Shown: positions 1-64,000 of the stretch, piece after piece
Numbering within the stretch: position 1 is the stretch's first letter
How the letters are laid out: the number at the start of each line of letters is the position of its first letter
Assembly (NCBI GenBank): GCA_964016885.1
Contig: OZ024744.1
Location: 136,338,001-136,402,000, forward strand
DNA: 64,000 bases
DNA from: Eledone cirrhosa
Taxonomy: Eukaryota
Direction: 5' to 3'
Translations under genes and position numbers: made by a program
Notes under the pieces: model-generated
Told to the model about the DNA's origin: nothing
Database searches by the model: none
What the model saw: only the letters and a program-made list of their open reading frames with translations

Positions 1-3000
1 TGTGATGTGTTGAGAGAGAAACTGTGTCTGAGAGGGATAGAATGTAGTGTGCGAGAGGGGAGACTGAGGTGGTATGGACATGTGATGTGTTGAGAGAGAA
101 ACTGTGTCTGAGAGGGATAGAATGAAGTGTGCGAGAGAGGAGACAGGTGGTATGGACATGTGATGAGTTGAGAGAGAAACTGTGTCTGAGAGGGATAGAA
201 TGTAGTGTGAGAGAGAGGAGACTGAGGTGGTATGGACATGTGATGTGTTGAGAGAGAAACTGTGTCTGAGAGGGATAGAATGAAGTGTGCGAGAGAGGAG
301 ACAGGTGGTATGGACATGTGATGAGTTGAGAGAGAAACTGTGTCTGAGAGGGATAGAATGTAGTGTGAGAGAGAGGAGACTGAGGTGGTATGGACATGTG
401 ATGTGTTGAGAGAGAAACTGTGTCTGAGAGTGATAGAATGTAGTGTGTGAGAGAGGAGACTTAGGTAGTATGGACATGTGATGAGTTGAGAGAGAAACTG
501 TGTCTGAGAGGGATAAAATGTAGTGTGAGAGAGAGGAGACTGAGGTGGTATGGACATGTGATGAGTTGAGAGAGAAACTGCTTCTGAGAGGGATAGAATG
601 TAGTGTGCGAGAGAGGAGACTGAGGTGGTATGGACATGTGATGTGTTGAGAGAGAAACTGTGTCTGAGAGGGATAGAATGAAGTGTGCGAGAGAGGAGAC
701 AGGTGGTATGGACATGTGATGAGTTGAGAGAGAAACTGTGTCTGAGAGGGATAGAATGTAGTCTGTGAGAGAGGGGACTGAGGTGGTATGGACATGTGAT
801 GTGTTGAGAGAGAAACTGTGTCTGAGAGGGATATAATGTAGTGTGCGAGAGAGGAGACTGAGGTGGTATGGACATGTGATGTGTTGAGAGAGAAACTGTG
901 TCTGAGAGGGATAGAATGTAGTGTGCGAGAGAGGAGACTGAGGTGGTATGGACATGTGATGTGTTGAGAGAGAAACTGTGTCTGAGAGGGATAGAATGTA
1001 GTGTGCGAGAGAGGAGACTGAGGTGGTATGGACATGTGATGAGTTGAGAGAGAAACTGTGTCTGAGAGGGATAGAATGTAGTGTAAGAGAGAGGAGACTG
1101 AGGTAGTATGGACATGTGATGGGTTGAGAGAGAAACTGTGTCTGAGAGGGATAGAATGTAGTGTGCGAGAGAGGAGACTGAGGTGGTATGGACATGTGAT
1201 GTGTTGAGAGAGAAACTGTGTCTGAGAGGGATAGAATGTAGTGTGCGAGAGAGGAGACTGAGGTGGTATGGACATGTGATGAGTTGAGAGAGAAACTGTG
1301 TCTGAGAGGGATAGAATGTAGTGTAAGAGAGAGGAGACTGAGGTAGTATGGACATGTGATGAGTTGAGAGAGAAACTGTGTCTGAGAGGGATAGAATGTA
1401 GTGTGCGAGAGAGGAGACTGAGATGGTATGGACATGTGATGTGTTGAGAGAGAAACTGTGTCTGAGAGGGATAGAATGTAGTGTGCGAGAGAGGAGACTG
1501 AGGTGGTATGGACATGTGATGACTTGAGAGAGAAACTGTCTGACAGGGATAGAATGTAGTGTGCGAGAGGGGAGACTGAGGTAGTATAGACATGTGATGA
1601 ATTGAGAGAGAAACTGTGTCTGAGAGGGATAGAATGTAGTGTGCGAAAGAGGAGACTGAGGTGGTATGGACATGTGATGAGTTGAGAGAGAAACTGTGTC
1701 TGAGAGAGATAGAATGTAGTGTGTGAGAGAGGAGACTGAGGTGGTATGGACATGTGATGTGTTGAGAGAGAAACTGTGTCTGAGAGTGATAGAATGTAGT
1801 GTAAGAGAGAGGAGACTGAGGTGGTATGGACATGTGATGAGTTGAGAGAGAAACTGTGTCTGAGAGGGATAGAATATAGTGTGCGAGAGGAGGAGACTGA
1901 GGTGGTATGGACATGTGATGTGTTGAGAGAGAAACTGTGTCCGAGAGTGATAGAATGTAGTGTAAGAGAGAGGAGACTGAGGTGGTATGGACATGTGATG
2001 AGTTGAGAGAGAAACTGTGTCTGATAGGGATAGAATATAGTGTGCGAGAGGAGGAGACTGAGGTGGTATGGACATGTGATGTGTTGAGAGAGAAACTGTC
2101 TGAGAGGGATAGAATGTAGTGTGTGAGAGAAGAGACTGAGGTGGTATGGACATGTGATGTGTTGAGAGAGAAACTGTGTCTGAGAGGGATAGAATGTAGT
2201 GTGCGAGAGAGGAGACTGAGGTGGTATGTACATGTGATGACTTGAGAGAGAAACTGTGTCTGAGAGAGATAGAATGTAGTGTACGAGAGAGGAGACTGAG
2301 GTGGTATGTACATGTGATGAATTGAGAGAGAAACTGTGTCTGAGAGAGATAGAATGTAGTGTGCGAGAGAGGAGACTGAGGTGGTATGGACATGTGATGT
2401 GTTGAGAGAGAAACTGTGTCTGAGAGGGATAGAATGTAGTGTACGGGAGAGGAGACAGGTGGTATAGACATGTGATGAGTTGAAAGAGAAACTGTGTCTG
2501 AGAGGGATAGAATGTAGTGTGCGAGAGAGGAGACTGAGGTGGTATGAACATGTGATGAGTTGAAAGAGAAACTGTGTCTGAGAGGGATAGAATGTAGTGT
2601 GTGAGAGAGGAGACAGGTGGTATGGACATGTGATGAGTTGAGAGAGAAACTCTGTCTGAGAGGGATAGAATGTAGTGTGCGAGAGAGGAGACTGAGGTGG
2701 TATGAACATGTGATGAGTTGAAAGAGAAACTGTGTCTGAGAGGGATAGAATGTAGTGTGTGAGAGAGGAGACAGGTGGTATGGACATGTGATGAGTTGAG
2801 AGAGAAACTGTGTCTGAGCGGGATAGAATGTAGTGTGCGAGAGAGGAGACTGAGGTGGTATGGACATGTGATGAGTTGAGAGAGAAACTGTGTCTGAGAG
2901 GGATAGAATGTAGTGTGCGAGAGAGGAGACGGAGGTGGTATGGACATGTGATGAGTTGAGAGAGAAACTGTGTCTGAGAGGGATAGAATGTAGTGTACGG

Positions 3001-6000
3001 GAGAGGAGACAGGTGGTATGAACATGTGATGAGTTGAGAAACTGTGTCTGAGAGGGATAGAATGTAGTGTGCGAGAGAGGAGACTGAGGTGGTATGGACA
3101 TGTGATGACTTGAGAGAGAAACTGTGTCTGAGAGAGATAGAATGTAGTGTGTGAGAGAGGAGACTGAGGTGGTATGGACATGTGATGTGTTGTGAGAGAA
3201 ACTGTGTCTGAGAGAGATAGAATGTAGTGTGTGAGAGGGGAGACTGAGGTGGTATAGACATGTGATGAGTTGAGAGAGAAACTGTGACTGAGAGGGATAG
3301 AATGTGGTGTGCGAGAGAGGAGACTGAGGTGGTATGGACATCTGATGTGTTGAGAGAGAAACCGTGTCTGAGAGGGATAGAATGTAGTGTGCGAGAGAGG
3401 AGACTGAGGTGCTATGGACATGTGATGTGTCGAGAGAGAAACTGTGTCTGAGAGGGATATAATGTAGTGTGCGAGAGAGGAGACTGAGGTGGTATGGACA
3501 TGTGATGTGTTGAGAGAGAAACTGTGTCTGAGAGGGATATAATGTAGTGTGCGAGAGAGGAGACTGAGGTGGTATGGACATGTGATGTGTTGAGAGAGAA
3601 ACTGTGTCTGAGAGGGATAGAATGTAGTGTGCGAGAGAGGAGACTGAGGTGGTATGGACATGTGATGAGTTGAGAGAGAAACTGTCTGAGAGGGATAGAA
3701 TGTAGTGTGCGAGAGAGGAGACTGAGGTGGTATGGACATGTGATGTGTTGAGAGAGAAACTGTGTCTGAGAAGGATAGAATGTAGTGTGCGAGAGAGGAG
3801 ACTGAGGTGGTATGGACATGTGATGACTTGAGAGAGAAACTGTCTGAGAGGGATAGAATGTAGTGTGCGAGAGGGGAGACTGAGGTAGTATAGACATGTG
3901 ATGAATTGAGAGAGAAACTGTGTCTGAGAGGGATAGAATGTAGTGTACGGGAGAGGAGACTGAGGTGGTATGAACATGTGATGAGTTGAGAGAGAAACTG
4001 TGTCTGAGAGGGATAGAATGTAGTGTGCGAGAGAGGAGACTGAGGTGGTATGGACATGTGATGAGTTGAGAGAGAAACTGTGTCTGAGAGAGATAGAATG
4101 TAGTGTGTGAGAGGAGAGACTGAGGTGGTATGGACATGTGATGAGTTGAGAGAGAAACTGTGTCTGAGAGGGATAGAATGTAGTGTACGGGAGAGGAGAC
4201 AGGTGGTATGAACATGTGATGAGTTGAGAAACTGTGTCTGAGAGGGATAGAATGTAGTGTGCGAGAGAGGAGACTGAGGTGGTATGGACATGTGATGACT
4301 TGAGAGAGAAACTGTGTCTGAGAGAGATAGAATGTAGTGTGTGAGAGAGGAGACTGAGGTGGTATGGACATGTGATGTGTTGTGAGAGAAACTGTGTCTG
4401 AGAGAGATAGAATGTAGTGTGTGAGAGGGGAGACTGAGGTGGTATAGACATGTGATGAGTTGAGAGAGAAACTGTGACTGAGAGGGATAGAATGTGGTGT
4501 GCGAGAGAGGAGACTGAGGTGGTATGGACATGTGATGTGTTGAGAGAGAAACCGTGTCTGAGAGGGATAGAATGTAGTGTGCGAGAGAGGAGACTGAGGT
4601 GCTATGGACATGTGATGTGTCGAGAGAGAAACTGTGTCTGAGAGGGATATAATGTAGTGTGCGAGAGAGGAGACTGAGGTGGTATGGACATGTGATGTGT
4701 TGAGAGAGAAACTGTGTCTGAGAGGGATATAATGTAGTGTGCGAGAGAGGAGACTGAGGTGGTATGGACATGTGATGTGTTGAGAGAGAAACTGTGTCTG
4801 AGAGGGATAGAATGTAGTGTGCGAGAGAGGAGACTGAGGTGGTATGGACATGTGATGAGTTGAGAGAGAAACTGTCTGAGAGGGATAGAATGTAGTGTGC
4901 GAGAGAGGAGACTGAGGTGGTATGGACATGTGATGTGTTGAGAGAGAAACTGTGTCTGAGAAGGATAGAATGTAGTGTGCGAGAGAGGAGACTGAGGTGG
5001 TATGGACATGTGATGAGTTGAGAGAGAAACTGTCTGAGAGGGATAGAATGTAGTGTGCGAGAGAGGAGACTGAGCTGGTATGGACATGTGAAGTGTTGAG
5101 AGAGAAACTGTGTCTGAGAGAGATAGAATGAAGTGTGCGAGAGAGGAGACAGGTGGTATGGACATGTGATGACTTGAGAGAGAAACTGTCTGAGAGGGAT
5201 AGAATGTAGTGTGCGAGAGGGGAGACTGAGGTAGTATAGACATGTGATGAATTGAGAGAGAAACTGTGTCTGAGAGGGATAGAATGTAGTGTACGGGAGA
5301 GGAGACAGGTGGTATGAACATGTGATGAGTTGAGAGAGAAACTGTGTCTGAGAGGGATAGAATGTAGTGTGCGAGAGAGGAGACTGAGGTGGTATGGACA
5401 TGTGATGAGTTGAGAGAGAAACTGTGTCTGAGAGAGATAGAATGTAGTGTGTGAGAGAGGAGACTGAGGTGGTGTGGACATGTGATGTGTTGAGAGAGAA
5501 ACTGTGTCTGAGAGAGATAGAATGTAGTGTGTGAGAGGGGAGACTGAGATGGTATGGACATGTGATGAGTTGAGAGAGAAACTGTCTGAGAGGGATAGAA
5601 TGTAGTGTGCGAGAGAGGAGACTGAGGTGGTATGGACATGTGAAGTGTTGAGAGAGACACTGTGTCTGAGAGAGATAGAATGTAGTGTGTGAGAGAGGAG
5701 ACTGAGGTGGTATGGACATGTGATGTGTTGTGAGAGAAACTGTGTCTGAGAGAGATAGAATGTAGTGTGTGAGAGGGGAGACTGAGGTGGTATAGACATG
5801 TGATGAGTTGAGAGAGAAACTGTGACTGAGAGGGATAGAATGTGGTGTGCGAGAGAGGAGACTGAGGTGGTATGGACATGTGATGTGTTGAGAGAGAAAC
5901 CGTGTCTGAGAGGGATAGAATGTAGTGTGCGAGAGAGGAGACTGAGGTGCTATGGACATGTGATGTGTCGAGAGAGAAACTGTGTCTGAGAGGGATATAA

Positions 6001-9000
6001 TGTAGTGTGCGAGAGAGGAGACTGAGGTGGTATGGACATGTGATGTGTTGAGAGAGAAACTGTGTCTGAGAGGGATATAATGTAGTGTGCGAGAGAGGAG
6101 ACTGAGGTGGTATGGACATGTGATGTGTTGAGAGAGAAACTGTGTCTGAGAGGGATAGAATGTAGTGTGCGAGAGAGGAGACTGAGGTGGTATGGACATG
6201 TGATGAGTTGAGAGAGAAACTGTCTGAGAGGGATAGAATGTAGTGTGCGAGAGAGGAGACTGAGGTGGTATGTACATGTGATGACTTGAGAGAGAAACTG
6301 TGTCTGAGAGAGATAGAATGTAGTGTACGAGAGAGGAGACTGAGGTGGTATGTACATGTGATGAATTGAGAGAGAAACTGTGTCTGAGAGAGATAGAATG
6401 TAGTGTGCGAGAGAGGAGACTGAGGTGGTATGGACATGTGATGTGTTGAGAGAGAAACTGTGTCTGAGAGGGATAGAATGTAGTGTACGGGAGAGGAGAC
6501 AGGTGGTATGGACATGTGATGAGTTGAAAGAGAAACTGTGTCTGAGAGGGATAGAATGTAGTGTGCGAGAGAGGAGACTGAGGTGGTATGAACATGTGAT
6601 GAGTTGAGAGAGAAACTGTGTCTGAGAGGGATAGAATGTAGTGTGCGAGAGAGGAGACGGAGGTGGTATGGACATGTGATGAGTTGAGAGAGAAACTGTG
6701 TCTGAGAGGGATAGAATGTAGTGTACGGGAGAGGAGACAGGTGGTATGAACATGTGATGAGTTGAGAAACTGTGTCTGAGAGGGATAGAATGTAGTGTGC
6801 GAGAGAGGAGACTGAGGTGGTATGGACATGTGATGACTTGAGAGAGAAACTGTGTCTGAGAGAGATAGAATGTAGTGTGTGAGAGAGGAGACTGAGGTGG
6901 TATGGACATGTGATGTGTTGTGAGAGAAACTGTGTCTGAGAGAGATAGAATGTAGTGTGTGAGAGGGGAGACTGAGGTGGTATAGACATGTGATGAGTTG
7001 AGAGAGAAACTGTGACTGAGAGGGATAGAATGTGGTGTGCGAGAGAGGAGACTGAGGTGGTATGGACATGTGATGTGTTGAGAGAGAAACCGTGTCTGAG
7101 AGGGATAGAATGTAGTGTGCGAGAGAGGAGACTGAGGTGCTATGGACATGTGATGTGTCGAGAGAGAAACTGTGTCTGAGAGGGATATAATGTAGTGTGC
7201 AAGAGAGGAGACTGAGGTGGTATGGACATGTGATGTGTTGAGAGAGAAACTGTGTCTGAGAGGGATATAATGTAGTGTGCGAGAGAGGAGACTGAGGTGG
7301 TATGGACATGTGATGTGTTGAGAGAGAAACTGTGTCTGAGAGGGATAGAATGTAGTGTAAGAGAGAGGAGACTGAGGTAGTATGGACATGTGATGAGTTG
7401 AGAGAGAAACTGTGTCTGAGAGGGATAGAATGTAGTGTGCGAGAGAGGAGACTGAGATGGTATGGACATGTGATGTGTTGAGAGAGAAACTGTGTCTGAG
7501 AGGGATAGAATGTAGTGTGCGAGAGAGGAGACTGAGGTGGTATGGACATGTGATGACTTGAGAGAGAAAATGTCTGACAGGGATAGAATGTAGTGTGCGA
7601 GAGGGGAGACTGAGGTAGTATAGACATGTGATGAATTGAGAGAGAAACTGTGTCTGAGAGGGATAGAATGTAGTGTGCGAAAGAGGAGACTGAGGTGGTA
7701 TGGACATGTGATGAGTTGAGAGAGAAACTGTGTCTGAGAGAGATAGAATGTAGTGTGTGAGAGGGGAGACTGAGGTGGTATGGACATGTGATGAGTTGAG
7801 AGAGAAACTGTCTGAGAGGGATAGAATGTAGTGTGCGAGAGAGGAGACTGAGGTGGTATGGACATGTGAAGTGTTGAGAGAGAAACTGTGTCTGAGAGTG
7901 ATAGAATGTAGTGTGCGAGAGAGGAGACTGAGGTGGTATGGACATGTGATGAGTTGAGAGAGAAACTGTGTCTGAGAGGGATAGAATATAGTGTGCGAGA
8001 GGAGGAGACTGAGGTGGTATGGACATGTGATGTGTTGAGAGAGAAACTGTGTCCGAGAGTGATAGAATGTAGTGTAAGAGAGAGGAGACTGAGGTGGTAT
8101 GGACATGTGATGAGTTGAGAGAGAAACTGTGTCTGATAGGGATAGAATATAGTGTGCGAGAGGAGGAGACTGAGGTGGTATGGACATGTGATGTGTTGAG
8201 AGAGAAACTGTCTGAGAGGGATAGAATGTAGTGTGTGAGAGAAGAGACTGAGGTGGTATGGACATGTGATGTGTTGAGAGAGAAACTGTGTCTGAGAGGG
8301 ATAGAATGTAGTGTGCGAGAGAGGAGACTGAGGTGGTATGTACATGTGATGACTTGAGAGAGAAACTGTGTCTGAGAGAGATAGAATGTAGTGTACGAGA
8401 GAGGAGACTGAGGTGGTATGTACATGTGATGAATTGAGAGAGAAACTGTGTCTGAGAGAGATAGAATGTAGTGTGCGAGAGAGGAGACTGAGGTGGTACG
8501 GACATGTGATGTGTTGAGAGAGAAACTGTGTCTGAGAGGGATAGAATGTAGTGTACGGGAGAGGAGACAGGTGGTATGGACATGTGATGAGTTGAAAGAG
8601 AAACTGTGTCTGAGAGGGATAGAATGTAGTGTGCGAGAGAGGAGACTGAGGTGGTATGAACATGTGATGAGTTGAAAGAGAAACTGTGTCTGAGAGGGAT
8701 AGAATGTAGTGTGTGAGAGAGGAGACAGGTGGTATGGACATGTGATGAGTTGAGAGAGAAACTGTGTCTGAGCGGGATAGAATGTAGTGTACGGGAGAGG
8801 AGACAGGTGGTATGAACATGTGATGAGTTGAGAAACTGTGTCTGAGAGGGATAGAATGTAGTGTGCGAGAGAGGAGACTGAGGTGGTATGGACATGTGAT
8901 GACTTGAGAGAGAAACTGTGTCTGAGAGAGATAGAATGTAGTGTGTGAGAGAGGAGACTGAGGTGGTATGGACATGTGATGTGTTGTGAGAGAAACTGTG

Positions 9001-12000
9001 TCTGAGAGAGATAGAATGTAGTGTGTGAGAGGGGAGACTGAGGTGGTATAGACATGTGATGAGTTGAGAGAGAAACTGTGACTGAGAGGGATAGAATGTG
9101 GTGTGCGAGAGAGGAGACTGAGGTGGTATGGACATGTGATGTGTTGAGAGAGAAACCGTGTCTGAGAGGGATAGAATGTAGTGTGCGAGAGAGGAGACTG
9201 AGGTGCTATGGACATGTGATGTGTCGAGAGAGAAACTGTGTCTGAGAGGGATATAATGTAGTGTGCGAGAGAGGAGACTGAGGTGGTATGGACATGTGAT
9301 GTGTTGAGAGAGAAACTGTGTCTGAGAGGGATATAATGTAGTGTGCGAGAGAGGAGACTGAGGTGGTATGGACATGTGATGTGTTGAGAGAGAAACTGTG
9401 TCTGAGAGGGATAGAATGTAGTGTGCGAGAGAGGAGACTGAGGTGGTATGGACATGTGATGAGTTGAGAGAGAAACTGTCTGAGAGGGATAGAATGTAGT
9501 GTGCGAGAGAGGAGACTGAGGTGGTATGGACATGTGATGTGTTGAGAGAGAAACTGTGTCTGAGAAGGATAGAATGTAGTGTGCGAGAGAGGAGACTGAG
9601 GTGGTATGGACATGTGATGACTTGAGAGAGAAACTGTCTGAGAGGGATAGAATGTAGTGTGCGAGAGGGGAGACTGAGGTAGTATAGACATGTGATGAAT
9701 TGAGAGAGAAACTGTGTCTGAGAGGGATAGAATGTAGTGTACGGGAGAGGAGACTGAGGTGGTATGAACATGTGATGAGTTGAGAGAGAAACTGTGTCTG
9801 AGAGGGATAGAATGTAGTGTGCGAGAGAGGAGACTGAGGTGGTATGGACATGTGATGAGTTGAGAGAGAAACTGTGTCTGAGAGAGATAGAATGTAGTGT
9901 GTGAGAGGAGAGACTGAGGTGGTATGGACATGTGATGAGTTGAGAGAGAAACTGTCTGAGAGGGATAGAATGTAGTGTGCGAGAGAGGAGACTGAGGTGG
10001 TATGGACATGTGAAGTGTTGAGAGAGAAACTGTGTCTGAGAGAGATAGAATGAAGTGTGCGAGAGAGGAGACAGGTGGTATGGACATGTGATGAGTTGAG
10101 AGAGAAACTGTGTCTGAGAGGGATAGAATGTAGTCTGTGAGAGAGGGGACTGAGGTGGTATGGACATGTGATGTGTTGAGAGAGAAACTGTGTCTGAGAG
10201 GGATATAATGTAGTGTGCGAGAGAGGAGACTGAGGTGGTATGGACATGTGATGTGTTGAGAGAGAAACTGTGTCTGAGAGGGATAGAATGTAGTGTGCGA
10301 GAGAGGAGACTGAGGTGGTATGGACATGTGATGAGTTGAGAGAGAAACTGTGTCTGAGAGGGATAGAATGTAGTGTAAGAGAGAGGAGACTGAGGTAGTA
10401 TGGACATGTGATGAGTTGAGAGAGAAACTGTGTCTGAGAGGGATAGAATGTAGTGTACGAGAGAGGAGACTGAGGTGGTATGTACATGTGATGAATTGAG
10501 AGAGAAACTGTGTCTGAGAGAGATAGAATGTAGTGTGCGAGAGAGGAGACTGAGGTGGTATGTACATGTGATGACTTGAGAGAGAAACTGTGTCTGAGAG
10601 AGATAGAATGTAGTGTACGAGAGAGGAGACTGAGGTGGTATGTACATGTGATGAATTGAGAGAGAAACTGTGTCTGAGAGAGATAGAATGTAGTGTGCGA
10701 GAGAGGAGACTGAGGTGGTATGGACATGTGATGTGTTGAGAGAGAAACTGTGTCTGAGAGGGATAGAATGTAGTGTACGGGAGAGGAGACAGGTGGTATG
10801 GACATGTGATGAGTTGAAAGAGAAACTGTGTCTGAGAGGGATAGAATGTAGTGTGCGAGAGAGGAGACTGAGGTGGTATGAACATGTGATGAGTTGAGAG
10901 AGAAACTGTGTCTGAGAGGGATAGAATGTAGTGTGCGAGAGAGGAGACGGAGGTGGTATGGACATGTGATGAGTTGAGAGAGAAACTGTGTCTGAGAGGG
11001 ATATAATGTAGTGTGCGAGAGAGGAGACTGAGGTGGTATGGACATGTGATGTGTTGAGAGAGAAACTGTGTCTGAGAGGGATAGAATGTAGTGTGCGAGA
11101 GAGGAGACTGAGGTGGTATGGACATGTGATGAGTTGAGAGAGAAACTGTCTGAGAGGGATAGAATGTAGTGTGCGAGAGAGGAGACTGAGGTGGTATGTA
11201 CATGTGATGACTTGAGAGAGAAACTGTGTCTGAGAGAGATAGAATGTAGTGTACGAGAGAGGAGACTGAGGTGGTATGTACATGTGATGAATTGAGAGAG
11301 AAACTGTGTCTGAGAGAGATAGAATGTAGTGTGCGAGAGAGGAGACTGAGGTGGTATGGACATGTGATGTGTTGAGAGAGAAACTGTGTCTGAGAGGGAT
11401 AGAATGTAGTGTACGGGAGAGGAGACAGGTGGTATGGACATGTGATGAGTTGAAAGAGAAACTGTGTCTGAGAGGGATAGAATGTAGTGTGCGAGAGAGG
11501 AGACTGAGGTGGTATGAACATGTGATGAGTTGAGAGAGAAACTGTGTCTGAGAGGGATAGAATGTAGTGTGCGAGAGAGGAGACGGAGGTGGTATGGACA
11601 TGTGATGAGTTGAGAGAGAAACTGTGTCTGAGAGGGATAGAATGTAGTGTACGGGAGAGGAGACAGGTGGTATGAACATGTGATGAGTTGAGAAACTGTG
11701 TCTGAGAGGGATAGAATGTAGTGTGCGAGAGAGGAGACTGAGGTGGTATGGACATGTGATGACTTGAGAGAGAAACTGTGTCTGAGAGAGATAGAATGTA
11801 GTGTGTGAGAGAGGAGACTGAGGTGGTATGGACATGTGATGTGTTGTGAGAGAAACTGTGTCTGAGAGAGATAGAATGTAGTGTGTGAGAGGGGAGACTG
11901 AGGTGGTATAGACATGTGATGAGTTGAGAGAGAAACTGTGACTGAGAGGGATAGAATGTGGTGTGCGAGAGAGGAGACTGAGGTGGTATGGACATGTGAT

Positions 12001-49576: not shown

Positions 49577-49727
49577 CGTTCATACAAACATACAAGTATA
49601 ATCATATTTATGAAGGTTATATGCATTTATACATAGACATTATACATACTTATTTAATAATACCAACACCAGAACCAAACATTTCTTAATAAAACAACAA
49701 TAATCATTTATTTCTTGATATTTACAC

Positions 49728-49810: not shown

Positions 49811-49834
49811 GATTATTGGAGTCGGAAGAAGAGA

Positions 49835-50100
49835 AAATGCACAGAGCGTCACCCTTACTCACTCACTTACTCACTTGAACACAGTTTTTTTCAGCAAACT
49901 TTGATCATAACTTTTTTTGTGCTGAACGAAATTTCGAGATTTTTAGCTTAAGAGATGTGCAATGATTTACTCTCCATGCTCATATAACTTTCATGTGATT
50001 TTGATAATCGGAAGACATTCTAATAATGCTGTAAAGAGACGATTGCCAACGAAATCACTAAGACAACAATATTACTAAACCGACTGCCGTCGGTTTAGGA
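49835..50100. repeat. Terminal module, outer copy (266 bp)
   Basis: It differs from the internal copy by a 6-bp indel (GCTT[ATATAT]AAG), a 3-bp indel in CAACAATATT[ATT]ACT and one loop base. It forms the element boundary. Confidence 0.95.
50075..50098. other. Terminal stem-loop (10-bp stem, 4-nt loop)
   Basis: CTAAACCGAC-TGCC-GTCGGTTTAG lies 2 bp from the element end. The stem is identical in both module copies while the loop differs. Confidence 0.9.
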
Positions 50101-53100: not shown

Positions 53101-56100
53101 TGAGAGAGATAGAATGTAGTGTGTGAGAGAGGAGACTGAGGTGGTATGGACATGTGATGTGTTGTGAGAGAAACTGTGTCTGAGAGAGATAGAATGTAGT
53201 GTGTGAGAGGGGAGACTGAGGTGGTATAGACATGTGATGAGTTGAGAGAGAAACTGTGACTGAGAGGGATAGAATGTGGTGTGCGAGAGAGGAGACTGAG
53301 GTGGTATGGACATGTGATGTGTTGAGAGAGAAACCGTGTCTGAGAGGGATAGAATGTAGTGTGCGAGAGAGGAGACTGAGGTGCTATGGACATGTGATGT
53401 GTCGAGAGAGAAACTGTGTCTGAGAGGGATATAATGTAGTGTGCGAGAGAGGAGACTGAGGTGGTATGGACATGTGATGTGTTGAGAGAGAAACTGTGTC
53501 TGAGAGGGATATAATGTAGTGTGCGAGAGAGGAGACTGAGGTGGTATGGACATGTGATGTGTTGAGAGAGAAACTGTGTCTGAGAGGGATAGAATGTAGT
53601 GTACGGGAGAGGAGACAGGTGGTATGAACATGTGATGAGTTGAGAGAGAAACTGTGTCTGAGAGGGATAGAATGTAGTGTGCGAGAGAGGAGACTGAGGT
53701 GGTATGGACATGTGATGAGTTGAGAGAGAAACTGTGTCTGAGAGAGATAGAATGTAGTGTGTGAGAGAGGAGACTGAGGTGGTATGGACATGTGATGTGT
53801 TGAGAGAGAAACTGTGTCTGAGAGAGATAGAATGTAGTGTGTGAGAGGAGAGACTGAGGTGGTATGGACATGTGATGAGTTGAGAGAGAAACTGTCTGAG
53901 AGGGATAGAATGTAGTGTGCGAGAGAGGAGACTGAGGTGGTATGGACATGTGAAGTGTTGAGAGAGAAACTGTGTCTGAGAGAGATAGAATGTAGTGTGT
54001 GAGAGAGGAGACTGAGGTGGTATGGACATGTGATGTGTTGAGAGAGAAACTGTGTCTGAGAGGGATAGAATGTAGTGTGCGAGAGAGGAGACTGAGGTGG
54101 TATGGACATGTGATGAGTTGAGAGAGAAACTGTGTCTGAGAGGGATAGAATGTAGTGTAAGAGAGAGGAGACTGAGGTAGTATGGACATGTGATGAGTTG
54201 AGAGAGAAACTGTGTCTGAGAGGGATAGAATGTAGTGTGCGAGAGAGGAGACTGAGGTGGTATGGACATGTGATGTGTTGAGAGAGAAACTGTGTCTGAG
54301 AGGGATAGAATGTAGTGTGCGAGAGAGGAGACTGAGGTGGTATGGACATGTGATGAGTTGAGAGAGAAACTGTGTCTGAGAGGGATAGAATGTAGTGTAA
54401 GAGAGAGGAGACTGAGGTAGTATGGACATGTGATGAGTTGAGAGAGAAACTGTGTCTGAGAGGGATAGAATGTAGTGTGCGGGAGAGGAGACTGAGGTGG
54501 TATGGACATGTGATGTGTTGAGAGAGAAACTGTGTCTGAGAGGGATAGAATGTAGTGTGCGAGAGAGGAGACTGAGGTGGTATGGACATGTGATGACTTG
54601 AGAGAGAAACTGTCTGACAGGGATAGAATGTAGTGTGCGAGAGGGGAGACTGAGGTAGTATAGACATGTGATGAATTGAGAGAGAAACTGTGTCTGAGAG
54701 GGATAGAATGTAGTGTGCGAAAGAGGAGACTGAGGTGGTATGGACATGTGATGAGTTGAGAGAGAAACTGTGTCTGAGAGAGATAGAATGTAGTGTGTGA
54801 GAGAGGAGACTGAGGTGGTATGGACATGTGATGTGTTGAGAGAGAAACTGTGTCTGAGAGAGATAGAATGTAGTGTACTTTGTGAGTGGGGAGACTGAGG
54901 TGGTATGGACATGTGATGAGTTGAGAGAGAAACTGTCTGAGAGGGATAGAATGTAGTGTGCGAGAGAGGAGACTGAGGTGGTATGGACATGTGAAGTGTT
55001 GAGAGAGAAACTGTGTCTGAGAGTGATAGAATGTAGTGTAAGAGAGAGGAGACTGAGGTGGTATGGACATGTGATGAGTTGAGAGAGAAACTGTGTCTGA
55101 GAGGGATAGAATATAGTGTGCGAGAGGAGGAGACTGAGGTGGTATGGACATGTGATGTGTTGAGAGAGAAACTGTGTCCGAGAGTGATAGAATGTAGTGT
55201 AAGAGAGAGGAGACTGAGGTGGTATGGACATGTGATGAGTTGAGAGAGAAACTGTGTCTGATAGGGATAGAATATAGTGTGCGAGAGGAGGAGACTGAGG
55301 TGGTATGGACATGTGATGTGTTGAGAGAGAAACTGTCTGAGAGGGATAGAATGTAGTGTGTGAGAGAAGAGACTGAGGTGGTATGGACATGTGATGTGTT
55401 GAGAGAGAAACTGTGTCTGAGAGGGATAGAATGTAGTGTGCGAGAGAGGAGACTGGTGGTATGGACATGTGATGAGTTGAGAGAGAAACTGTGTCTAAGA
55501 GGGATAGAATGTAGTGTGCGAGAGAGGAGACTGAGGTGGTATGTACATGTGATGACTTGAGAGAGAAACTGTCTGAGACGGATAGAATGTAGTGTGCGAG
55601 AGGGGAGACTGAGGTGGTATGGACATGTGATGAGTTGAGAGAGAAACTGTGTCTGAGATGGATAGAATGTAGTGTACGAGAGAGGAGACTGAGGTGGTAT
55701 GTACATGTGATGAATTGAGAGAGAAACTGTGTCTGAGAGAGATAGAATGTAGTGTGCGAGAGAGGAGACTGAGGTGGTATGGACATGTGATGTGTTGAGA
55801 GAGAAACTGTGTCTGAGAGGGATAGAATGTAGTGTACGGGAGAGGAGACAGGTGGTATGGACATGTGATGAGTTGAGAGAGAAACTGTGTCTGAGAGGGA
55901 TAGAATGTAGTGTGCGAGAGAGGAGACTGAGGTGGTATGGACATGTGATGAGTTGAGAGAGAAACTGTGTCTGAGAGAGATAGAATGTAGTGTGTGAGAG
56001 AGGAGACTGAGGTGGTATGGACATGTGATGTGTTGAGAGAGAAACTGTGTCTGAGAGAGATAGAATGTAGTGTGTGAGAGGAGAGACTGAGGTGGTATGG

Positions 56101-59100
56101 ACATGTGATGAGTTGAGAGAGAAACTGTCTGAGAGGGATAGAATGTAGTGTGCGAGAGAGGAGACTGAGGTGGTATGGACATGTGAAGTGTTGAGAGAGA
56201 AACTGTGTCTGAGAGAGATAGAATGTAGTGTGTGAGAGAGGAGACTGAGGTGGTATGGACATGTGATGTGTTGAGAGAGAAACTGTGTCTGAGAGGGATA
56301 GAATGTAGTGTGCGAGAGAGGAGACTGAGGTGGTATGGACATGTGATGAGTTGAGAGAGAAACTGTGTCTGAGAGGGATAGAATGTAGTGTAAGAGAGAG
56401 GAGACTGAGGTAGTATGGACATGTGATGAGTTGAGAGAGAAACTGTGTCTGAGAGGGATAGAATGTAGTGTGCGAGAGAGGAGACTGAGGTGGTATGGAC
56501 ATGTGATGTGTTGAGAGAGAAACTGTGTCTGAGAGGGATAGAATGTAGTGTGCGAGAGAGGAGACTGAGGTGGTATGGACATGTGATGAGTTGAGAGAGA
56601 AACTGTGTCTGAGAGGGATAGAATGTAGTGTAAGAGAGAGGAGACTGAGGTAGTATGGACATGTGATGAGTTGAGAGAGAAACTGTGTCTGAGAGGGATA
56701 GAATGTAGTGTGCGGGAGAGGAGACTGAGGTGGTATGGACATGTGATGTGTTGAGAGAGAAACTGTGTCTGAGAGGGATAGAATGTAGTGTGCGAGAGAG
56801 GAGACTGAGGTGGTATGGACATGTGATGACTTGAGAGAGAAACTGTCTGACAGGGATAGAATGTAGTGTGCGAGAGGGGAGACTGAGGTAGTATAGACAT
56901 GTGATGAATTGAGAGAGAAACTGTGTCTGAGAGGGATAGAATGTAGTGTGCGAAAGAGGAGACTGAGGTGGTATGGACATGTGATGAGTTGAGAGAGAAA
57001 CTGTGTCTGAGAGAGATAGAATGTAGTGTGTGAGAGAGGAGACTGAGGTGGTATGGACATGTGATGTGTTGAGAGAGAAACTGTGTCTGAGAGAGATAGA
57101 ATGTAGTGTACTTTGTGAGTGGGGAGACTGAGGTGGTATGGACATGTGATGAGTTGAGAGAGAAACTGTCTGAGAGGGATAGAATGTAGTGTGCGAGAGA
57201 GGAGACTGAGGTGGTATGGACATGTGAAGTGTTGAGAGAGAAACTGTGTCTGAGAGTGATAGAATGTAGTGTAAGAGAGAGGAGACTGAGGTGGTATGGA
57301 CATGTGATGAGTTGAGAGAGAAACTGTGTCTGAGAGGGATAGAATATAGTGTGCGAGAGGAGGAGACTGAGGTGGTATGGACATGTGATGTGTTGAGAGA
57401 GAAACTGTGTCCGAGAGTGATAGAATGTAGTGTAAGAGAGAGGAGACTGAGGTGGTATGGACATGTGATGAGTTGAGAGAGAAACTGTGTCTGATAGGGA
57501 TAGAATATAGTGTGCGAGAGGAGGAGACTGAGGTGGTATGGACATGTGATGTGTTGAGAGAGAAACTGTCTGAGAGGGATAGAATGTAGTGTGTGAGAGA
57601 AGAGACTGAGGTGGTATGGACATGTGATGTGTTGAGAGAGAAACTGTGTCTGAGAGGGATAGAATGTAGTGTGCGAGAGAGGAGACTGGTGGTATGGACA
57701 TGTGATGAGTTGAGAGAGAAACTGTGTCTAAGAGGGATAGAATGTAGTGTGCGAGAGAGGAGACTGAGGTGGTATGTACATGTGATGACTTGAGAGAGAA
57801 ACTGTCTGAGACGGATAGAATGTAGTGTGCGAGAGGGGAGACTGAGGTGGTATGGACATGTGATGAGTTGAGAGAGAAACTGTGTCTGAGATGGATAGAA
57901 TGTAGTGTACGAGAGAGGAGACTGAGGTGGTATGTACATGTGATGAATTGAGAGAGAAACTGTGTCTGAGAGAGATAGAATGTAGTGTGCGAGAGAGGAG
58001 ACTGAGGTGGTATGGACATGTGATGTGTTGAGAGAGAAACTGTGTCTGAGAGGGATAGAATGTAGTGTACGGGAGAGGAGACAGGTGGTATGGACATGTG
58101 ATGAGTTGAAAGAGAAACTGTGTCTGAGAGGGATAGAATGTAGTGTGCGAGAGAGGAGACTGAGGTGGTATGAACATGTGATGAGTTGAAAGAGAAACTG
58201 TGTCTGAGAGGGATAGAATGTAGTGTGTGAGAGAGGAGACAGGTGGTATGGACATGTGATGAGTTGAGAGAGAAACTGTGTCTGAGAGGGATAGAATGTA
58301 GTGTGCGAGAGAGGAGACTGAGGTGGTATGGACATGTGATGAGTTGAGAGAGAAACTGTGTCTGAGAGGGATAGAATGTAGTGTGCGAGAGAGGAGACGG
58401 AGGTGGTATGGACATGTGATGAGTTGAGAGAGAAACTGTGTCTGAGAGGGATAGAATGTAGTGTACGGGAGAGGAGACAGGTGGTATGAACATGTGATGA
58501 GTTGAGAAACTGTGTCTGAGAGGGATAGAATGTAGTGTGCGAGAGAGGAGACTGAGGTGGTATGGACATGTGATGACTTGAGAGAGAAACTGTGTCTGAG
58601 AGAGATAGAATGTAGTGTGTGAGAGAGGAGACTGAGGTGGTATGGACATGTGATGTGTTGTGAGAGAAACTGTGTCTGAGAGAGATAGAATGTAGTGTGT
58701 GAGAGGGGAGACTGAGGTGGTATAGACATGTGATGAGTTGAGAGAGAAACTGTGACTGAGAGGGATAGAATGTGGTGTGCGAGAGAGGAGACTGAGGTGG
58801 TATGGACATGTGATGTGTTGAGAGAGAAACCGTGTCTGAGAGGGATAGAATGTAGTGTGCGAGAGAGGAGACTGAGGTGCTATGGACATGTGATGTGTCG
58901 AGAGAGAAACTGTGTCTGAGAGGGATATAATGTAGTGTGCGAGAGAGGAGACTGAGGTGGTATGGACATGTGATGTGTTGAGAGAGAAACTGTGTCTGAG
59001 AGGGATAGAATGTAGTGTGCGAGAGAGGAAACTGAGGTGGTATGGACATGTGATGAGTTGAGAGAGAAACTGTCTGAGAGGGATAGAATGTAGTGTGCGA

Positions 59101-62100
59101 GAGAGGAGACTGAGGTGGTATGGACATGTGATGTGTTGAGAGAGAAACTGTGTCTGAGAGGGATAGAATGTAGTGTGCGAGAGAGGAGACTGAGGTGGTA
59201 TGGACATGTGATGACTTGAGAGAGAAACTGTGTCTGAGAGGGATAGAATGTAGTGTGCGAGAGAGGAAACTGAGGTGGTATGGACATGTGATGAGTTGAG
59301 AGAGAAACTGTCTGAGAGGGATAGAATGTAGTGTGCGAGAGAGGAGACTGAGGTGGTATGGACATGTGATGTGTTGAGAGAGAAACTGTGTCTGAGAGGG
59401 ATAGAATGTAGTGTGCGAGAGAGGAGACTGAGGTGGTATGGACATGTGATGACTTGAGAGAGAAACTGTCTGAGAGGGATAGAATGTAGTGTGCGAGAGG
59501 GGAGACTGAGGTAGTATAGACATGTGATGAATTGAGAGAGAAACTGTGTCTGAGAGGGATAGAATGTAGTGTACGGGAGAGGAGACAGGTGGTATGAACA
59601 TGTGATGAGTTGAGAGAGAAACTGTGTCTGAGAGGGATAGAATGTAGTGTGCGAGAGAGGAGACTGAGGTGGTATGGACATGTGATGAGTTGAGAGAGAA
59701 ACTGTGTCTGAGAGAGATAGAATGTAGTGTGTGAGAGAAGAGACTGAGGTGGTATGGACATGTGATGTGTTGAGAGAGAAACTGTGTCTGAGAGAGATAG
59801 AATGTAGTGTGTGAGAGGGGAGACTGAGGTGGTATGGACATGTGATGAGTTGAGAGAGAAACTGTCTGAGAGGGATAGAATGTAGTGTGCGAGAGAGGAG
59901 ACTGAGGTGGTATGGACATGTGAAGTGTTGAGAGAGAAACTGTGTCTGAGAGAGATAGAATGTAGTGTGTGAGAGAGGAGACTGAGGTGGTATGGACATG
60001 TGATGTGTTGTGAGAGAAACTGTGTCTGAGAGAGATAGAATGTAGTGTGTGAGAGGGGAGACTGAGGTGGTATAGACATGTGATGAGTTGAGAGAGAAAC
60101 TGTGACTGAGAGGGATAGAATGTGGTGTGCGAGAGAGGAGACTGAGGTGGTATGGACATGTGATGTGTTGAGAGAGAAACCGTGTCTGTGAGGGATAGAA
60201 TGTAGTGTGCGAGAGAGGAGACTGAGGTGCTATGGACATGTGATGTGTCGAGAGAGAGACTGTGTTTGAGAGGGATATAATGTAGTGTGCGAGAGAGGAG
60301 ACTGAGGTGGTATGGACATGTGATGTGTTGAGAGAGAAACTGTGTCTGAGAGGGATATAATGTAGTGTGCGAGAGAGGAGACTGAGGTGGTATGGACATG
60401 TGATGTGTTGAGAGAGAAACTGTGTCTGAGAGGGATAGAATGTAGTGTGCGAGAGAGGAGACTGAGGTGGTATGGACATGTGATGAGTTGAGAGAGAAAC
60501 TGTCTGAGAGGGATAGAATGTAGTGTGCGAGAGAGGAGACTGAGGTGGTATGGACATGTGATGTGTTGAGAGAGAAACTGTGTCTGAGAGGGATAGAATG
60601 TAGTGTGCGAGAGAGGAGACTGAGGTGGTATGGACATGTGATGACTTGAGAGAGAAACTGTCTGAGACGGATAGAATGTAGTGTGCGAGAGGGGAGACTG
60701 AGGTGGTATGGACATGTGATGAGTTGAGAGAGAAACTGTGTCTGAGATGGATAGAATGTAGTGTACGAGAGAGGAGACTGAGGTGGTATGTACATGTGAT
60801 GAATTGAGAGAGAAACTGTGTCTGAGAGAGATAGAATGTAGTGTGCGAGAGAGGAGACTGAGGTGGTATGGACATGTGATGTGTTGAGAGAGAAACTGTG
60901 TCTGAGAGGGATAGAATGTAGTGTACGGGAGAGGAGACAGGTGGTATGGACATGTGATGAGTTGAAAGAGAAACTGTGTCTGAGAGGGATAGAATGTAGT
61001 GTGCGAGAGAGGAGACTGAGGTGGTATGAACATGTGATGAGTTGAAAGAGAAACTGTGTCTGAGAGGGATAGAATGTAGTGTGTGAGAGAGGAGACAGGT
61101 GGTATGGACATGTGATGAGTTGAGAGAGAAACTGTGTCTGAGAGGGATAGAATGTAGTGTGCGAGAGAGGAGACTGAGGTGGTATGGACATGTGATGAGT
61201 TGAGAGAGAAACTGTGTCTGAGAGGGATAGAATGTAGTGTGCGAGAGAGGAGACGGAGGTGGTATGGACATGTGATGAGTTGAGAGAGAAACTGTGTCTG
61301 AGAGGGATAGAATGTAGTGTACGGGAGAGGAGACAGGTGGTATGAACATGTGATGAGTTGAGAAACTGTGTCTGAGAGGGATAGAATGTAGTGTGCGAGA
61401 GAGGAGACTGAGGTGGTATGGACATGTGATGACTTGAGAGAGAAACTGTGTCTGAGAGGGATATAATGTAGTGTGCGAGAGAGGAGACTGAGGTGGTATG
61501 GACATGTGATGTGTTGAGAGAGAAACTGTGTCTGAGAGGGATAGAATGTAGTGTGCGAGAGAGGAAACTGAGGTGGTATGGACATGTGATGAGTTGAGAG
61601 AGAAACTGTCTGAGAGGGATAGAATGTAGTGTGCGAGAGAGGAGACTGAGGTGGTATGGACATGTGATGTGTTGAGAGAGAAACTGTGTCTGAGAGGGAT
61701 AGAATGTAGTGTGCGAGAGAGGAGACTGAGGTGGTATGGACATGTGATGACTTGAGAGAGAAACTGTGTCTGAGAGGGATAGAATGTAGTGTGCGAGAGA
61801 GGAAACTGAGGTGGTATGGACATGTGATGAGTTGAGAGAGAAACTGTCTGAGAGGGATAGAATGTAGTGTGCGAGAGAGGAGACTGAGGTGGTATGGACA
61901 TGTGATGTGTTGAGAGAGAAACTGTGTCTGAGAGGGATAGAATGTAGTGTGCGAGAGAGGAGACTGAGGTGGTATGGACATGTGATGACTTGAGAGAGAA
62001 ACTGTCTGAGAGGGATAGAATGTAGTGTGCGAGAGGGGAGACTGAGGTAGTATAGACATGTGATGAATTGAGAGAGAAACTGTGTCTGAGAGGGATAGAA

Positions 62101-64000
62101 TGTAGTGTACGGGAGAGGAGACAGGTGGTATGAACATGTGATGAGTTGAGAGAGAAACTGTGTCTGAGAGGGATAGAATGTAGTGTGCGAGAGAGGAGAC
62201 TGAGGTGGTATGGACATGTGATGAGTTGAGAGAGAAACTGTGTCTGAGAGAGATAGAATGTAGTGTGTGAGAGAAGAGACTGAGGTGGTATGGACATGTG
62301 ATGTGTTGAGAGAGAAACTGTGTCTGAGAGAGATAGAATGTAGTGTGTGAGAGGGGTGACTGAGGTGGTATGGACATGTGATGAGTTGAGAGAGAAACTG
62401 TCTGAGAGGGATAGAATGTAGTGTGCGAGAGAGGAGACTGAGGTGGTATGGACATGTGAAGTGTTGAGAGAGAAACTGTGTCTGAGAGAGATAGAATGTA
62501 GTGTGTGAGAGAGGAGACTGAGGTGGTATGGACATGTGATGTGTTGTGAGAGAAACTGTGTCTGAGAGAGATAGAATGTAGTGTGTGAGAGGGGAGACTG
62601 AGGTGGTATAGACATGTGATGAGTTGAGAGAGAAACTGTGACTGAGAGGGATAGAATGTGGTGTGCGAGAGAGGAGACTGAGGTGGTATGGACATGTGAT
62701 GTGTTGAGAGAGAAACCGTGTCTGTGAGGGATAGAATGTAGTGTGCGAGAGAGGAGACTGAGGTGCTATGGACATGTGATGTGTCGAGAGAGAGACTGTG
62801 TTTGAGAGGGATATAATGTAGTGTGCGAGAGAGGAGACTGAGGTGGTATGGACATGTGATGTGTTGAGAGAGAAACTGTGTCTGAGAGGGATATAATGTA
62901 GTGTGCGAGAGAGGAGACTGAGGTGGTATGGACATGTGATGTGTTGAGAGAGAAACTGTGTCTGAGAGGGATAGAATGTAGTGTGCGAGAGAGGAGACTG
63001 AGGTGGTATGGACATGTGATGAGTTGAGAGAGAAACTGTCTGAGAGGGATAGAATGTAGTGTGCGAGAGAGGAGACTGAGGTGGTATGGACATGTGATGT
63101 GTTGAGAGAGAAACTGTGTCTGAGAGGGATAGAATGTAGTGTGCGAGAGAGGAGACTGAGGTGGTATGGACATGTGATGACTTGAGAGAGAAACTGTCTG
63201 AGAGGGATAGAATGTAGTGTGCGAGAGGGGAGACTGAGGTAGTATAGACATGTGATGAATTGAGAGAGAAACTGTGTCTGAGAGGGATAGAATGTAGTGT
63301 ACGGGAGAGGAGACAGGTGGTATGAACATGTGATGAGTTGAGAGAGAAACTGTGTCTGAGAGGGATAGAATGTAGTGTGCGAGAGAGGAGACTGAGGTGG
63401 TATGGACATGTGATGAGTTGAGAGAGAAACTGTGTCTGAGAGAGATAGAATGTAGTGTGTGAGAGAGGAGACTGAGGTGGTATGGACATGTGATGTGTTG
63501 AGAGAGAAACTGTGTCTGAGAGGGATAGAATGTAGTGTGTGAGAGAAGAGACTGAGGTGGTATGGACATGTGATGTGTTGAGAGAGAAACTGTGTCTGAG
63601 AGAGATAGAATGTAGTGTGTGAGAGGGGAGACTGAGGTGGTATGGACATGTGATGAGTTGAGAGAGAAACTGTCTGAGAGGGATAGAATGTAGTGTGCGA
63701 GAGAGGAGACTGAGGTGGTATGGACATGTGAAGTGTTGAGAGAGAAACTGTGTCTGAGAGAGATAGAATGTAGTGTGTGAGAGAGGAGACTGAGGTGGTA
63801 TAGACATGTGATGAGTTGAGAGAGAAACTGTGACTGAGAGGGATAGAATGTGGTGTGCGAGAGAGGAGACTGAGGTGGTATGGACATGTGATGTGTTGAG
63901 AGAGAAACCGTGTCTGTGAGGGATAGAATGTAGTGTGCGAGAGAGGAGACTGAGGTGCTATGGACATGTGATGTGTCGAGAGAGAGACTGTGTCTGAGAG
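50101..64000. repeat. 80-bp satellite DNA array (right block, ~175 monomers)
   Basis: Same monomer and orientation. It resumes at TGTAGT, exactly completing the GATAGAA|TGTAGT monomer broken at 46327, and runs off the window end. Confidence 0.99.
53650..58100. repeat. 2,233-bp higher-order duplication
   Basis: Private variants GTACTTTGTGAGTGGGG (~54875/57108), TCTAAGA (55495/57728) and GACTGGTGG recur at offset 2233. Boundaries are approximate. Confidence 0.85.

Follow-up and report, generated by a model that had tools for sequence, protein, structure and literature searches.

An 80-bp satellite that probably arose from the C-terminal coding end of an RTE-type LINE

Introduction

A stretch of 64,000 nt (the window) that consists largely of one 80-bp tandem repeat raises the question of what the repeat was before it became a satellite and how it was first duplicated. 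Satellites derived from LINE ORFs are already known. As described in the accessible part of a review, those related to ORF2 include the chicken HinfI repeat (CR1), the Phodopus PROsat (L1) and the seal Pvc 20 repeat (L1), and the cetacean common satellite comes from the 3′ end of L1 (PMC9659126). The same portion derives the PisTR-A satellite from the 3′ UTR of Ogre, and further retrotransposon-derived plant satellites are found in the available part of PMC7004042. The events that first create a satellite can seldom be observed, and the 80-bp satellite is an unusually well-resolved case.

Results and discussion

The window is a homogeneous satellite array with a single interruption

TRF detected an 80-bp tandem array across the whole window. 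When the array was cut at a fixed anchor we obtained 756 whole units and one interrupted unit, all head to tail on one strand (518 units of 80 bp, 188 of 78, 25 of 81, 22 of 76, two of 85 and one of 62). Units are 96–97% identical; for those of exactly 80 bp, identity to their own consensus is 97.0%. The earlier note had the satellite running from end to end. The array is there, however its coverage is not complete, as positions 46328–50100 are a non-satellite insert missed at that time, the sole break in the array (Table 1). Subtracting its 3,773 bp leaves ~60.2 kb of satellite. Joined together, the flanks of the insert form an 80-bp unit variant that recurs exactly at 14 other places in the window, and 78% of the right-arm units are variants that also occur in the left arm. 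Rfam gave no match within 46000–50400.

Table 1. Positions of the satellite, its duplication and the parts of the insert
Feature	Position	Strand	Remarks
Satellite, left arm	1..46327	+	582 whole units; continues past window edge
Satellite, right arm	50101..64000	+	174 whole units; continues past window edge
Reference unit in LINE codon phase	46209..46292	+	28 codons, 84 bp, GATG at both ends; period 80 bp
Example junction GATG	46289..46292	+	end of one unit = start of next; matches direct microhomology in dispersed parent copies
Exact adjacent duplication	13205..34222	+	13205–23744 = 23683–34222; 10,540 bp, no mismatch
Helitron-like insert, non-coding	46328..50100	-	3,773 bp; 5′-TC ... CTAG-3′, between A and T, no target duplication
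Palindrome at CTAG end of insert	46328..46831	.	504 bp; arms 100% complementary, 42-bp spacer
Minisatellite inside insert	48470..49040	.	48 bp, ~11 copies
Second, internal copy of insert's TC end	49068..49341	-	adjoins (AT)n run
Hairpin two bases inside TC end	50075..50098	-	10-bp stem; first 45 nt predicted -10.2 kcal/mol, DNA parameters

Identical units recur at lags of 132, 42, 106 and 192 units (0.30–0.14, compared with at most 0.05 in 50 order shuffles), which shows that the array contains nested block duplications. The largest exact duplication is offset by 10,478 bp, or 132 units, and may reflect either very recent amplification or an expansion made during assembly; the local length of the array is therefore uncertain. 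This duplication, together with many exact duplications of 1.4–3.4 kb, could be taken to mean that a short repeat was inflated in assembly and that most of the array is artefact. We regard this as very improbable, since 110 different variants of the unit occur, 39 of them once only, in an irregular, nested order, and since the unique insert sits in register. The summed depth of satellite-type letters in public contigs of run X1 is also very high, though X1 may be the source sample.

The unit matches the C-terminal end of a LINE reading frame

The translation of the reference unit is the 28-residue peptide of the earlier note. The last four bases of its 84-bp span (GATG) are also the first four of the next unit, and because of this sharing the frame shifts with each 80-bp unit, as had been read from the letters. 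That each monomer encodes the peptide is true of the consensus and not of the units, as there are 101 exact copies of the peptide for 756 units; stop-free stretches with LRWYGHV number 455.

A phmmer search of 1.84 billion proteins with a 31-aa peptide from the window returned 11 hits at E ≤ 0.001, with best identities of 75–79% over 28 residues. The R-L-x-W motif region is present in all 11, one of which carries RVT_1 and one of which is from Octopus bimaculoides. One hit, P0004, has 155 long relatives at E ≤ 1e-20; RVT_1 was found in 120 of the 120 listed, and the best of these is from O. bimaculoides (69%). In 116 of the 120 the motif is present, downstream of YADD by a median of 244 residues and with a median of 80 left to the C-terminus. 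A family profile built from the last 330 residues of the listed P0004 relatives scored the + strand of the unit at 24.6 bits, compared with 5.2 for the best of 2,000 shuffled translations, and although this profile is not fully independent, being seeded via a protein first found with the unit, chance resemblance to a LINE can be set aside. Nothing on the minus strand scored with the profile. Pfam gave no family for the 31-aa peptide, a word-based protein search with a 41-aa stretch gave no candidate, and a degenerate 35-nt motif had no matches in metagenome contigs. Atlas placed the peptide near unnamed clusters of 30–40 aa at 0.95–0.96, but with a recognition value under the threshold of the tool, and these clusters were left out of account. 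Judged by these comparisons, the view that the unit comes from the C-terminal end of a LINE family's APE+RT reading frame is supported. An origin in a LINE ORF, on the + strand and in the same frame, had been proposed before, and agrees with the phmmer hits, the shuffle-controlled profile and the in-frame LINE flanks of dispersed copies described below. Among the matches listed, the closest named relatives appear to be O. bimaculoides proteins, which is in keeping with the earlier lead to cephalopods.

The parent is likely of RTE type

We assigned the parent LINE by the architecture of its relatives and not by a tree, and on that basis it is likely of RTE type. The ORF is 958–1,130 aa long in 70 of 119 listed relatives; Malik and Eickbush are said to have described RTE, in 1998, as a single ORF of ~1,000–1,100 residues with an AP endonuclease and an RT. 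RTE-clade LINEs are not known to have a C-terminal zinc knuckle, and neither a knuckle nor a C2H2 pattern followed the motif in any of the 116 listed relatives that carry it; a PHD-like finger lies just after the RT. The label "craniofacial development protein 2-like", which, going by one reference title, may mark the RTE-1 endonuclease, is borne by 7 of the 16 named hits among the 120 listed relatives. Of 30 metagenome loci that extend 400 nt or more beyond the motif, 25 have a (GTT)3 tail and none an A10 run; the 30 were drawn from 80 loci and are only 32–47% identical to P0004. The accessible parts of two papers give the same RTE ORF length of ~1,000–1,100 residues (PMC10294476) and, for plant RTEs, 3′ ends made of short tandem repeats, (TTG)n for example, as opposed to poly(A) (PMC3747384). 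Solved structures include only L1 and R2 relatives. What speaks for the RTE type claimed in the earlier note is thus the architecture of the relatives and not a tree.

RTE LINEs are expanded in cephalopods, according to the available part of PMC10294476, and RTE-2_OV of Octopus vulgaris is described, in the portion of PMC9115989 at hand, as an RTE-BovB-type LINE with a C2H2 finger. The relatives of the unit appear to resemble such cephalopod elements in their single ORF of ~1,050–1,100 residues with an endonuclease and an RT, as well as in the octopus origin of the nearest named proteins. They have a PHD-like finger, however, and compared by these partial descriptions the parent is probably another family than RTE-2_OV.

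The units no longer evolve as coding sequence

Synonymous changes make up 15 of 68 distinct substitutions (22%, compared with 21% expected), nine of the 68 create stops, and 237 of the 756 units have frame-breaking indels. The units drift neutrally, free of coding constraint, and the repeat shows no sign of still being coding. The sequencing runs listed for the array included none from RNA. Long stop-free frames, of 1,050 to 4,235 codons, lie over the array on the minus strand, and none of the three minus frames of the consensus contains a stop, so that the array could be read as the coding repeat of a giant His/Ser/Thr/Leu-rich protein. We give this reading almost no credence, as 33% of 3,000 dinucleotide-shuffled versions of the unit lack stops just as it does, the minus strand has no profile score, and indels of 1, 2, 4 and 5 bp are scattered freely among the units.

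Dispersed copies place both breakpoints at a short microhomology

In public contigs of organism A (run X1), dispersed copies align with the unit over exactly 84 bp, from GATG to GATG, and the LINE frame continues on both sides. By hand translation in the frame of the unit, the 40 contigs with loose ends upstream of 46209 give NVNVRERPSI and the 156 with loose ends downstream of 46292 give RMEDDSCIKK, the two sets being counted separately and both ends being spanned by only some listed pieces. These peptides match P0007 and P0002 at 6 of 10 and 7 of 10 residues, ungapped. The parent in organism A is known from such short flanks and not from a whole element, and the listed copies differ from the unit at 6–17 of 84–87 bases. 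They carry a 4-bp GATG microhomology 80 bp apart. The GATG(AG) microhomology suggested in the earlier note is therefore present as GATG at both ends of the span, without the AG extension: the parent continues with CG there, and a six-base GATGAG is out.

An un-repeated copy was found in organism E (run X8, only six contigs), where one contig of 3,977 bp matches 46210–46292 with three differences in 83 bp (96% alike). It has LINE-type flanks, only ATG is common to its two ends, and it carries the letters of the satellite at positions where most LINE copies differ. The metagenome loci (L001–L080) belong to a distant sister family in the same codon register, and 0 of 37 of them have a 4-bp match at the two offsets of the unit. 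The microhomology is thus confined to the parent lineage. By a hand estimate from the base composition of the window, a random pair of breakpoints has a 3–4-bp microhomology in ~3–9% of cases, and for this reason we consider the first-step duplication likely and not proven.

Other organisms seem to have little or none of the array. Pieces from X5 (46252–46309) and X8 (46236–46309 and 46280–46324) cross the junction with fewer than 31 letters on one side and are hints only. Run X6 has almost no cover at 46294–46317, which proves nothing. Organisms D and F, whose word shares were small, were left out of the comparison.

A model for the birth of the satellite

Taken as a whole, we put the probability at about 80% that the satellite arose from a C-terminal coding piece of a LINE, was first duplicated at a (G)ATG microhomology and was then amplified in blocks without selection. 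The first duplication would likely have occurred in one decayed LINE copy at 3–4 bp of (G)ATG, the cause being either mispairing of slipped strands or a microhomology-mediated repair event that involved the two GATG sites 80 bp apart. We infer that the founder was one diverged copy or a small sub-lineage, because the organism E copy shares the satellite's diagnostic letters. Growth may then have proceeded by unequal exchange or break-induced replication of blocks of ~26 to 190 units, with a non-autonomous Helitron-like element presumably inserting afterwards.

The first tandem copies could instead have been made during retrotransposition, when the RT slipped or jumped back on the RNA, with growth at the DNA level coming later. 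The segment lies ~200–300 nt from the 3′ end of the element and would be copied early in reverse transcription; four of the 11 phmmer hits (P0001, P0006, P0008 and P0010) hold in-frame tandem copies of the motif region, and one X1 contig has another go-back joint, from 46292 to 46249 with 24 letters between. However, phmmer sums repeated matches and so favours repeated hits, none of 39 motif-carrying metagenome loci has a tandem repeat over the motif, and the go-back joint is a single contig with a depth of 5.7. Moreover, the diagnostic letters in the un-repeated, diverged organism E copy fit duplication inside an old inserted copy. We consider an origin during retrotransposition unlikely, if worth keeping in view, and favour duplication in the DNA of an inserted copy.

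Possible functions of the array

The array most likely behaves as a non-coding heterochromatic satellite. We think it rather doubtful that it is a functional centromere satellite or a piRNA source silencing the parent LINE family, a proposal that concerns function only and is compatible with an origin from a LINE fragment. The array exceeds 60 kb, is homogeneous and contains higher-order blocks. Summed contig depth in X1 is ~10^6 over the unit, compared with 6–47 for listed single pieces, though summed depth is not copy number; by the same measure the satellite letter at 46265 accounts for ~726,000 of 1,001,000 in X1, ~510 of 14,555 in X5 and 56 of 1,249 in X6. A regular higher-order repeat or a nucleosome-sized dimer is common, though not universal, in centromeric satellites. 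The window has no fixed higher-order unit, with irregular lags of 26–192 units, and a 160-bp dimer is excluded, as lag-2 identity (1.9%) is below the shuffled mean (2.3%). The 6–17 mismatches in the dispersed copies of organism A would also weaken pairing with small RNAs. TE-derived centromeric satellites and links to piRNAs are reviewed in the part of PMC9659126 available.

We can also imagine, as a long shot, a sequence in which a 4-bp microhomology in a dead RTE copy gave rise to a dominant, species-restricted satellite and then to a centromere or an antisense small-RNA trap for the parent LINE, in a cephalopod-like animal whose related organisms retain the founder and low-copy intermediates. 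If true, every stage on the way from LINE codon to centromere would be represented and could be dated; should the array prove inert, it illustrates a known process neatly.

Relation to known satellites

Like HinfI, PROsat, Pvc 20 and the cetacean satellite, as partially described in PMC9659126, the 80-bp satellite is a LINE-derived tandem unit, ORF2 being among the sources. In HinfI, however, the LINE piece (3′ UTR and partial ORF2) is only part of the unit, and in PROsat it is only a small region (88%), according to the same portion of the review, whereas the 80-bp unit consists of coding sequence throughout, has two resolved breakpoints and comes from an RTE-like donor. The plant satellites are similar in that a short retroelement piece was amplified into long arrays. 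As far as the consulted parts of those sources go, they begin from tandem repeats already present in non-coding parts of LTR elements, whereas in the parent of the 80-bp satellite we saw no pre-existing repeat, only the 3–4-bp direct match. The word RTE does not occur in the main text of the satellite review, and in the open-access literature we found neither a satellite described as coming from RTE coding sequence nor a centromeric satellite of any cephalopod; the accessible parts of PMC7716205 and PMC13282606 mention nothing of the kind. Repeat libraries in the supplements of octopus papers may already list the 80-bp unit.

Since the family of the donor is known, as are the two breakpoints, the microhomology and an un-repeated copy that is 96% alike, and since there is apparently little or no array elsewhere, the steps from single copy to short array to large array can be tested by comparison. 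There is also a practical side: in repeat annotation such arrays will be masked as LINE fragments by the thousand, which inflates "recent RTE activity", and gene finders may predict giant proteins on their minus strand.

The insert resembles a non-autonomous Helitron

The three insert ORFs scanned have no coding domain at the Pfam cut-off. In its 5′ TC, its 3′ CTRR and its position between A and T, the insert is like the non-autonomous Helitron HLE1, as characterized in the available part of PMC11417382. We class it as Helitron-like only, because no short hairpin was found just before its CTRR end, where the final 60 nt have a folding energy of only -2.3 kcal/mol. In the comparison with that partial description of HLE1, the insert differs in having its 504-bp palindrome in place of the short hairpin before CTAG, and a strong hairpin at the TC end.

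Origin of the satellite unit

The window is a tandem array with an 80-bp period, holding 756 complete units plus one that is interrupted, on a single strand throughout, in 110 distinct variants. Composition is flat, at GC 46% and GC skew +0.73, apart from 46–50 kb. Identity to their own consensus is 97.0% for the 518 units of 80 bp; measured against the reference unit at 46209, identity across all 756 is 96.1%. The span 46209–46292 encodes a 28-residue peptide, and its final GATG doubles as the first four bases of the next unit, bearing out the monomer peptide proposed in an earlier note. The exact peptide occurs 101 times in the window, and the longest plus-strand stop-free stretch within the array is 68 codons.

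We searched 1.84 billion representative proteins with a 31-residue peptide from the window (phmmer, E ≤ 0.001) and obtained 11 matches. Five form a close group in alignment, at 68–79% identity (P0002, P0004, P0005, P0007 and P0009), and P0009 comes from Octopus bimaculoides (sources looked up for 10 of the 11). With P0004 as query, 155 long proteins were recovered; all 120 listed carry RVT_1, many also have an endonuclease and a PHD-like finger, and the best relative among those listed is again from O. bimaculoides. The domain order endonuclease, RT and, where present, PHD-like finger was confirmed in five scanned relatives. In 116 of the 120 listed relatives the motif lies a median of 244 residues past YADD and 80 ahead of the C-terminus. 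Against a family profile built from the C-terminal 330 residues of these 120 relatives, the plus strand of the unit reached 24.6 bits and the minus strand gave no score, while the maximum among 2,000 translations of 1,000 dinucleotide shuffles was 5.2 bits, in agreement with the earlier claim of a plus-strand LINE coding origin. As the profile was seeded via a protein that the unit itself had retrieved, the shuffle test speaks to non-chance similarity, not independence.

P0004 and P0012–P0131 make up a large single-ORF LINE family with the PHD-like finger directly after the RT core, found in octopus, Hydractinia, amphioxus and many marine records. Other LINE-derived proteins (P0001, P0006, P0008 and P0010) hold 2–5 in-frame tandem copies of the R-L-x-W-[FY]-G-H-V region, which may mark a duplication-prone segment, though the search favours repeated matches. 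The O. bimaculoides gene models P0009 and P0012, which combine LINE sequence with a host domain (ZFYVE21 C-terminus; LETM1), are probably annotation chimeras. LINE endonuclease pieces under Salmonella records (P0230 and P0237, short contigs) are probably contamination.

Judged by the architecture of its relatives, rather than by a tree, the parent LINE is likely RTE-type. Relatives measure 958–1,130 residues in 70 of 119 cases, and no zinc knuckle follows the motif in any of 116. A CFDP2-like label, which we take to be a sign of RTE-1 endonuclease and for which one reference title gives support, is carried by 7 of 16 named endonuclease matches among those listed. Among 30 metagenome loci that extend far enough downstream, 25 end in (GTT)n and none in poly(A); (TTG)n tails are described for plant RTEs in PMC3747384. 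PMC10294476 reports a great expansion of RTE-BovB in cephalopods.

Dispersed copies and the GATG junction

Nine sequencing runs share part of 44000–52000, with organism A, which may be the source of the window, sharing 0.43–0.67 of words. Contigs of runs X1, X5, X6 and X8 (4 of 12 runs) were aligned to 46190–46408 at 80% likeness; loose ends and differences were counted in the best-supported rows and are minimum values. In X1 (organism A), loose ends lie before 46209 in at least 40 contigs and behind 46292 in at least 156, exactly the ends of the 84-bp span, and the downstream end recurs in X5 (at least 26 contigs) and X6 (at least 21). Translated by hand in the unit's frame, the X1 consensus ends read NVNVRERPSI upstream, matching 6 of 10 residues of P0007 without gaps, and RMEDDSCIKK downstream, matching 7 of 10 of P0002. 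X1 alignments that start at 46209 and stop at 46292 show that GATG is present at both ends. The neighbouring bases differ in the X1 copies (A versus T before, A versus C after), which limits the microhomology to 4 bp. Thus, of the GATG(AG) microhomology 80 bp apart suggested previously, GATG stands, while the six-base GATGAG is rejected by the base that follows. By a hand estimate with a match probability of 0.30 per base, about 3% of random breakpoint pairs would have microhomology of at least 4 bp and about 9% of at least 3 bp. In a distant sister family from metagenome loci, a 4-bp match at the same offsets was found in 0 of 37.

Six contigs aligned from X8, the run of organism E, and one of them (record 25, 3,977 bp) is a near-identical, un-repeated copy that aligns over 46210–46292 with 3 differences. 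Among those listed, the X8 loose ends at either place are of LINE type; position 46209 carries A, which shortens the shared bases to ATG. At eight listed differences that mark most LINE copies, the depth of this contig (54.2) is missing from the rows; the copy thus has the satellite's letters at those sites. Two of its differences, 46256 G>A and 46259 A>G, are synonymous, form the majority in X1 summed depth and co-occur in 62 of 756 window units; this variant is likely ancestral. The copy may be a founder orthologue, a transcript, a mixed sample or a horizontal transfer.

Across the unit, X1 contig depths add up to about 10^6, against 6–47 for eight listed X1 pieces. The satellite letter at 46265 accounts for about 726,000 of 1,001,000 in X1, 510 of 14,555 in X5 and 56 of 1,249 in X6. 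These summed depths, which are no copy numbers, hint that, of the organisms compared, only A underwent the large amplification. X5 has pieces with 0–2 differences over 60–64 bp plus one short junction-crossing piece, and X8 has two; each of these crossing pieces falls short of 31 letters on at least one side of the junction.

The satellite is real; its LINE-derived kind is already known, and this member is new. PMC9659126 records satellites related to LINE ORF2 for CR1 and L1. Our searches of open-access literature listings turned up nothing published on an RTE-coding-derived satellite or on a centromeric satellite in cephalopods. The array is notable in that its origin can be read unusually completely.

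Growth and possible function of the array

Read in the LINE frame, 68 distinct substitutions comprise 15 synonymous (21% expected), 44 residue-changing and 9 stop-making changes. Indels of 1, 2, 4 or 5 bp, mostly within GT and GA runs, occur in 237 of 756 units. Unit order in the left arm shows identical units returning after 132, 42, 106, 192, 174, 60 and 26 units, with recurrence up to 0.30 against a maximum of 0.05 in 50 order shuffles; the unit-order lag test gave no dimer period. This pattern fits an array that would have grown through the duplication of whole blocks, for instance by unequal exchange or break-induced replication. PMC9659126 names microhomology-mediated duplication and slippage among the routes. 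The longest exact duplication (10,540 bp, 132 units, two adjacent copies, zero mismatches) is either a very young event or an assembly expansion.

No analysis of the window showed a function for the array. Mild evidence against a possible centromeric or small-RNA role comes from the absence of any regular higher-order unit and from the 6–17 differences between the unit and listed dispersed copies. Frames as long as 4,235 codons overlap the array on the minus strand and could be miscalled as mucin-like genes. A coding minus strand was rejected, as 33% of 3,000 dinucleotide shuffles of the unit are equally stop-free.

Coordinates of features in the window
Feature	Position	Strand or location	Remark
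Longest exact duplication	13205-34222	left arm
Stop-free frames, 1,050-4,235 codons	38460-46380 and 50058-62765	minus	explained by base composition
Helitron-like insert	46328-50100		3,773 bp
48-bp G-run minisatellite	48470-49040	inside insert	6 or 7 consecutive G per copy on plus strand

A Helitron-like insert

The insert, which is non-coding, sits between A and T and has the minus-strand form TC ... CTAG. Once joined, its flanks give a unit variant of which the window has 14 other exact copies, and the order of variants continues across it; the insert therefore postdates the array. It contains a 504-bp terminal palindrome, minisatellites of 34, 74 and 48 bp, and a second copy of its own TC end. 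We call it only Helitron-like because, unlike the HLE1 elements described in PMC11417382, it is without a short 3′ hairpin. The palindrome is perfect and lies at the CTAG end, with a strong hairpin at the TC end, reversing the usual arrangement. Summed depth at the CTAG end is high in three runs (X1, X5 and X6). The context of the palindrome's inner arm is similar to loose ends seen in X5 and X8, and for this reason the inner junction may be old.
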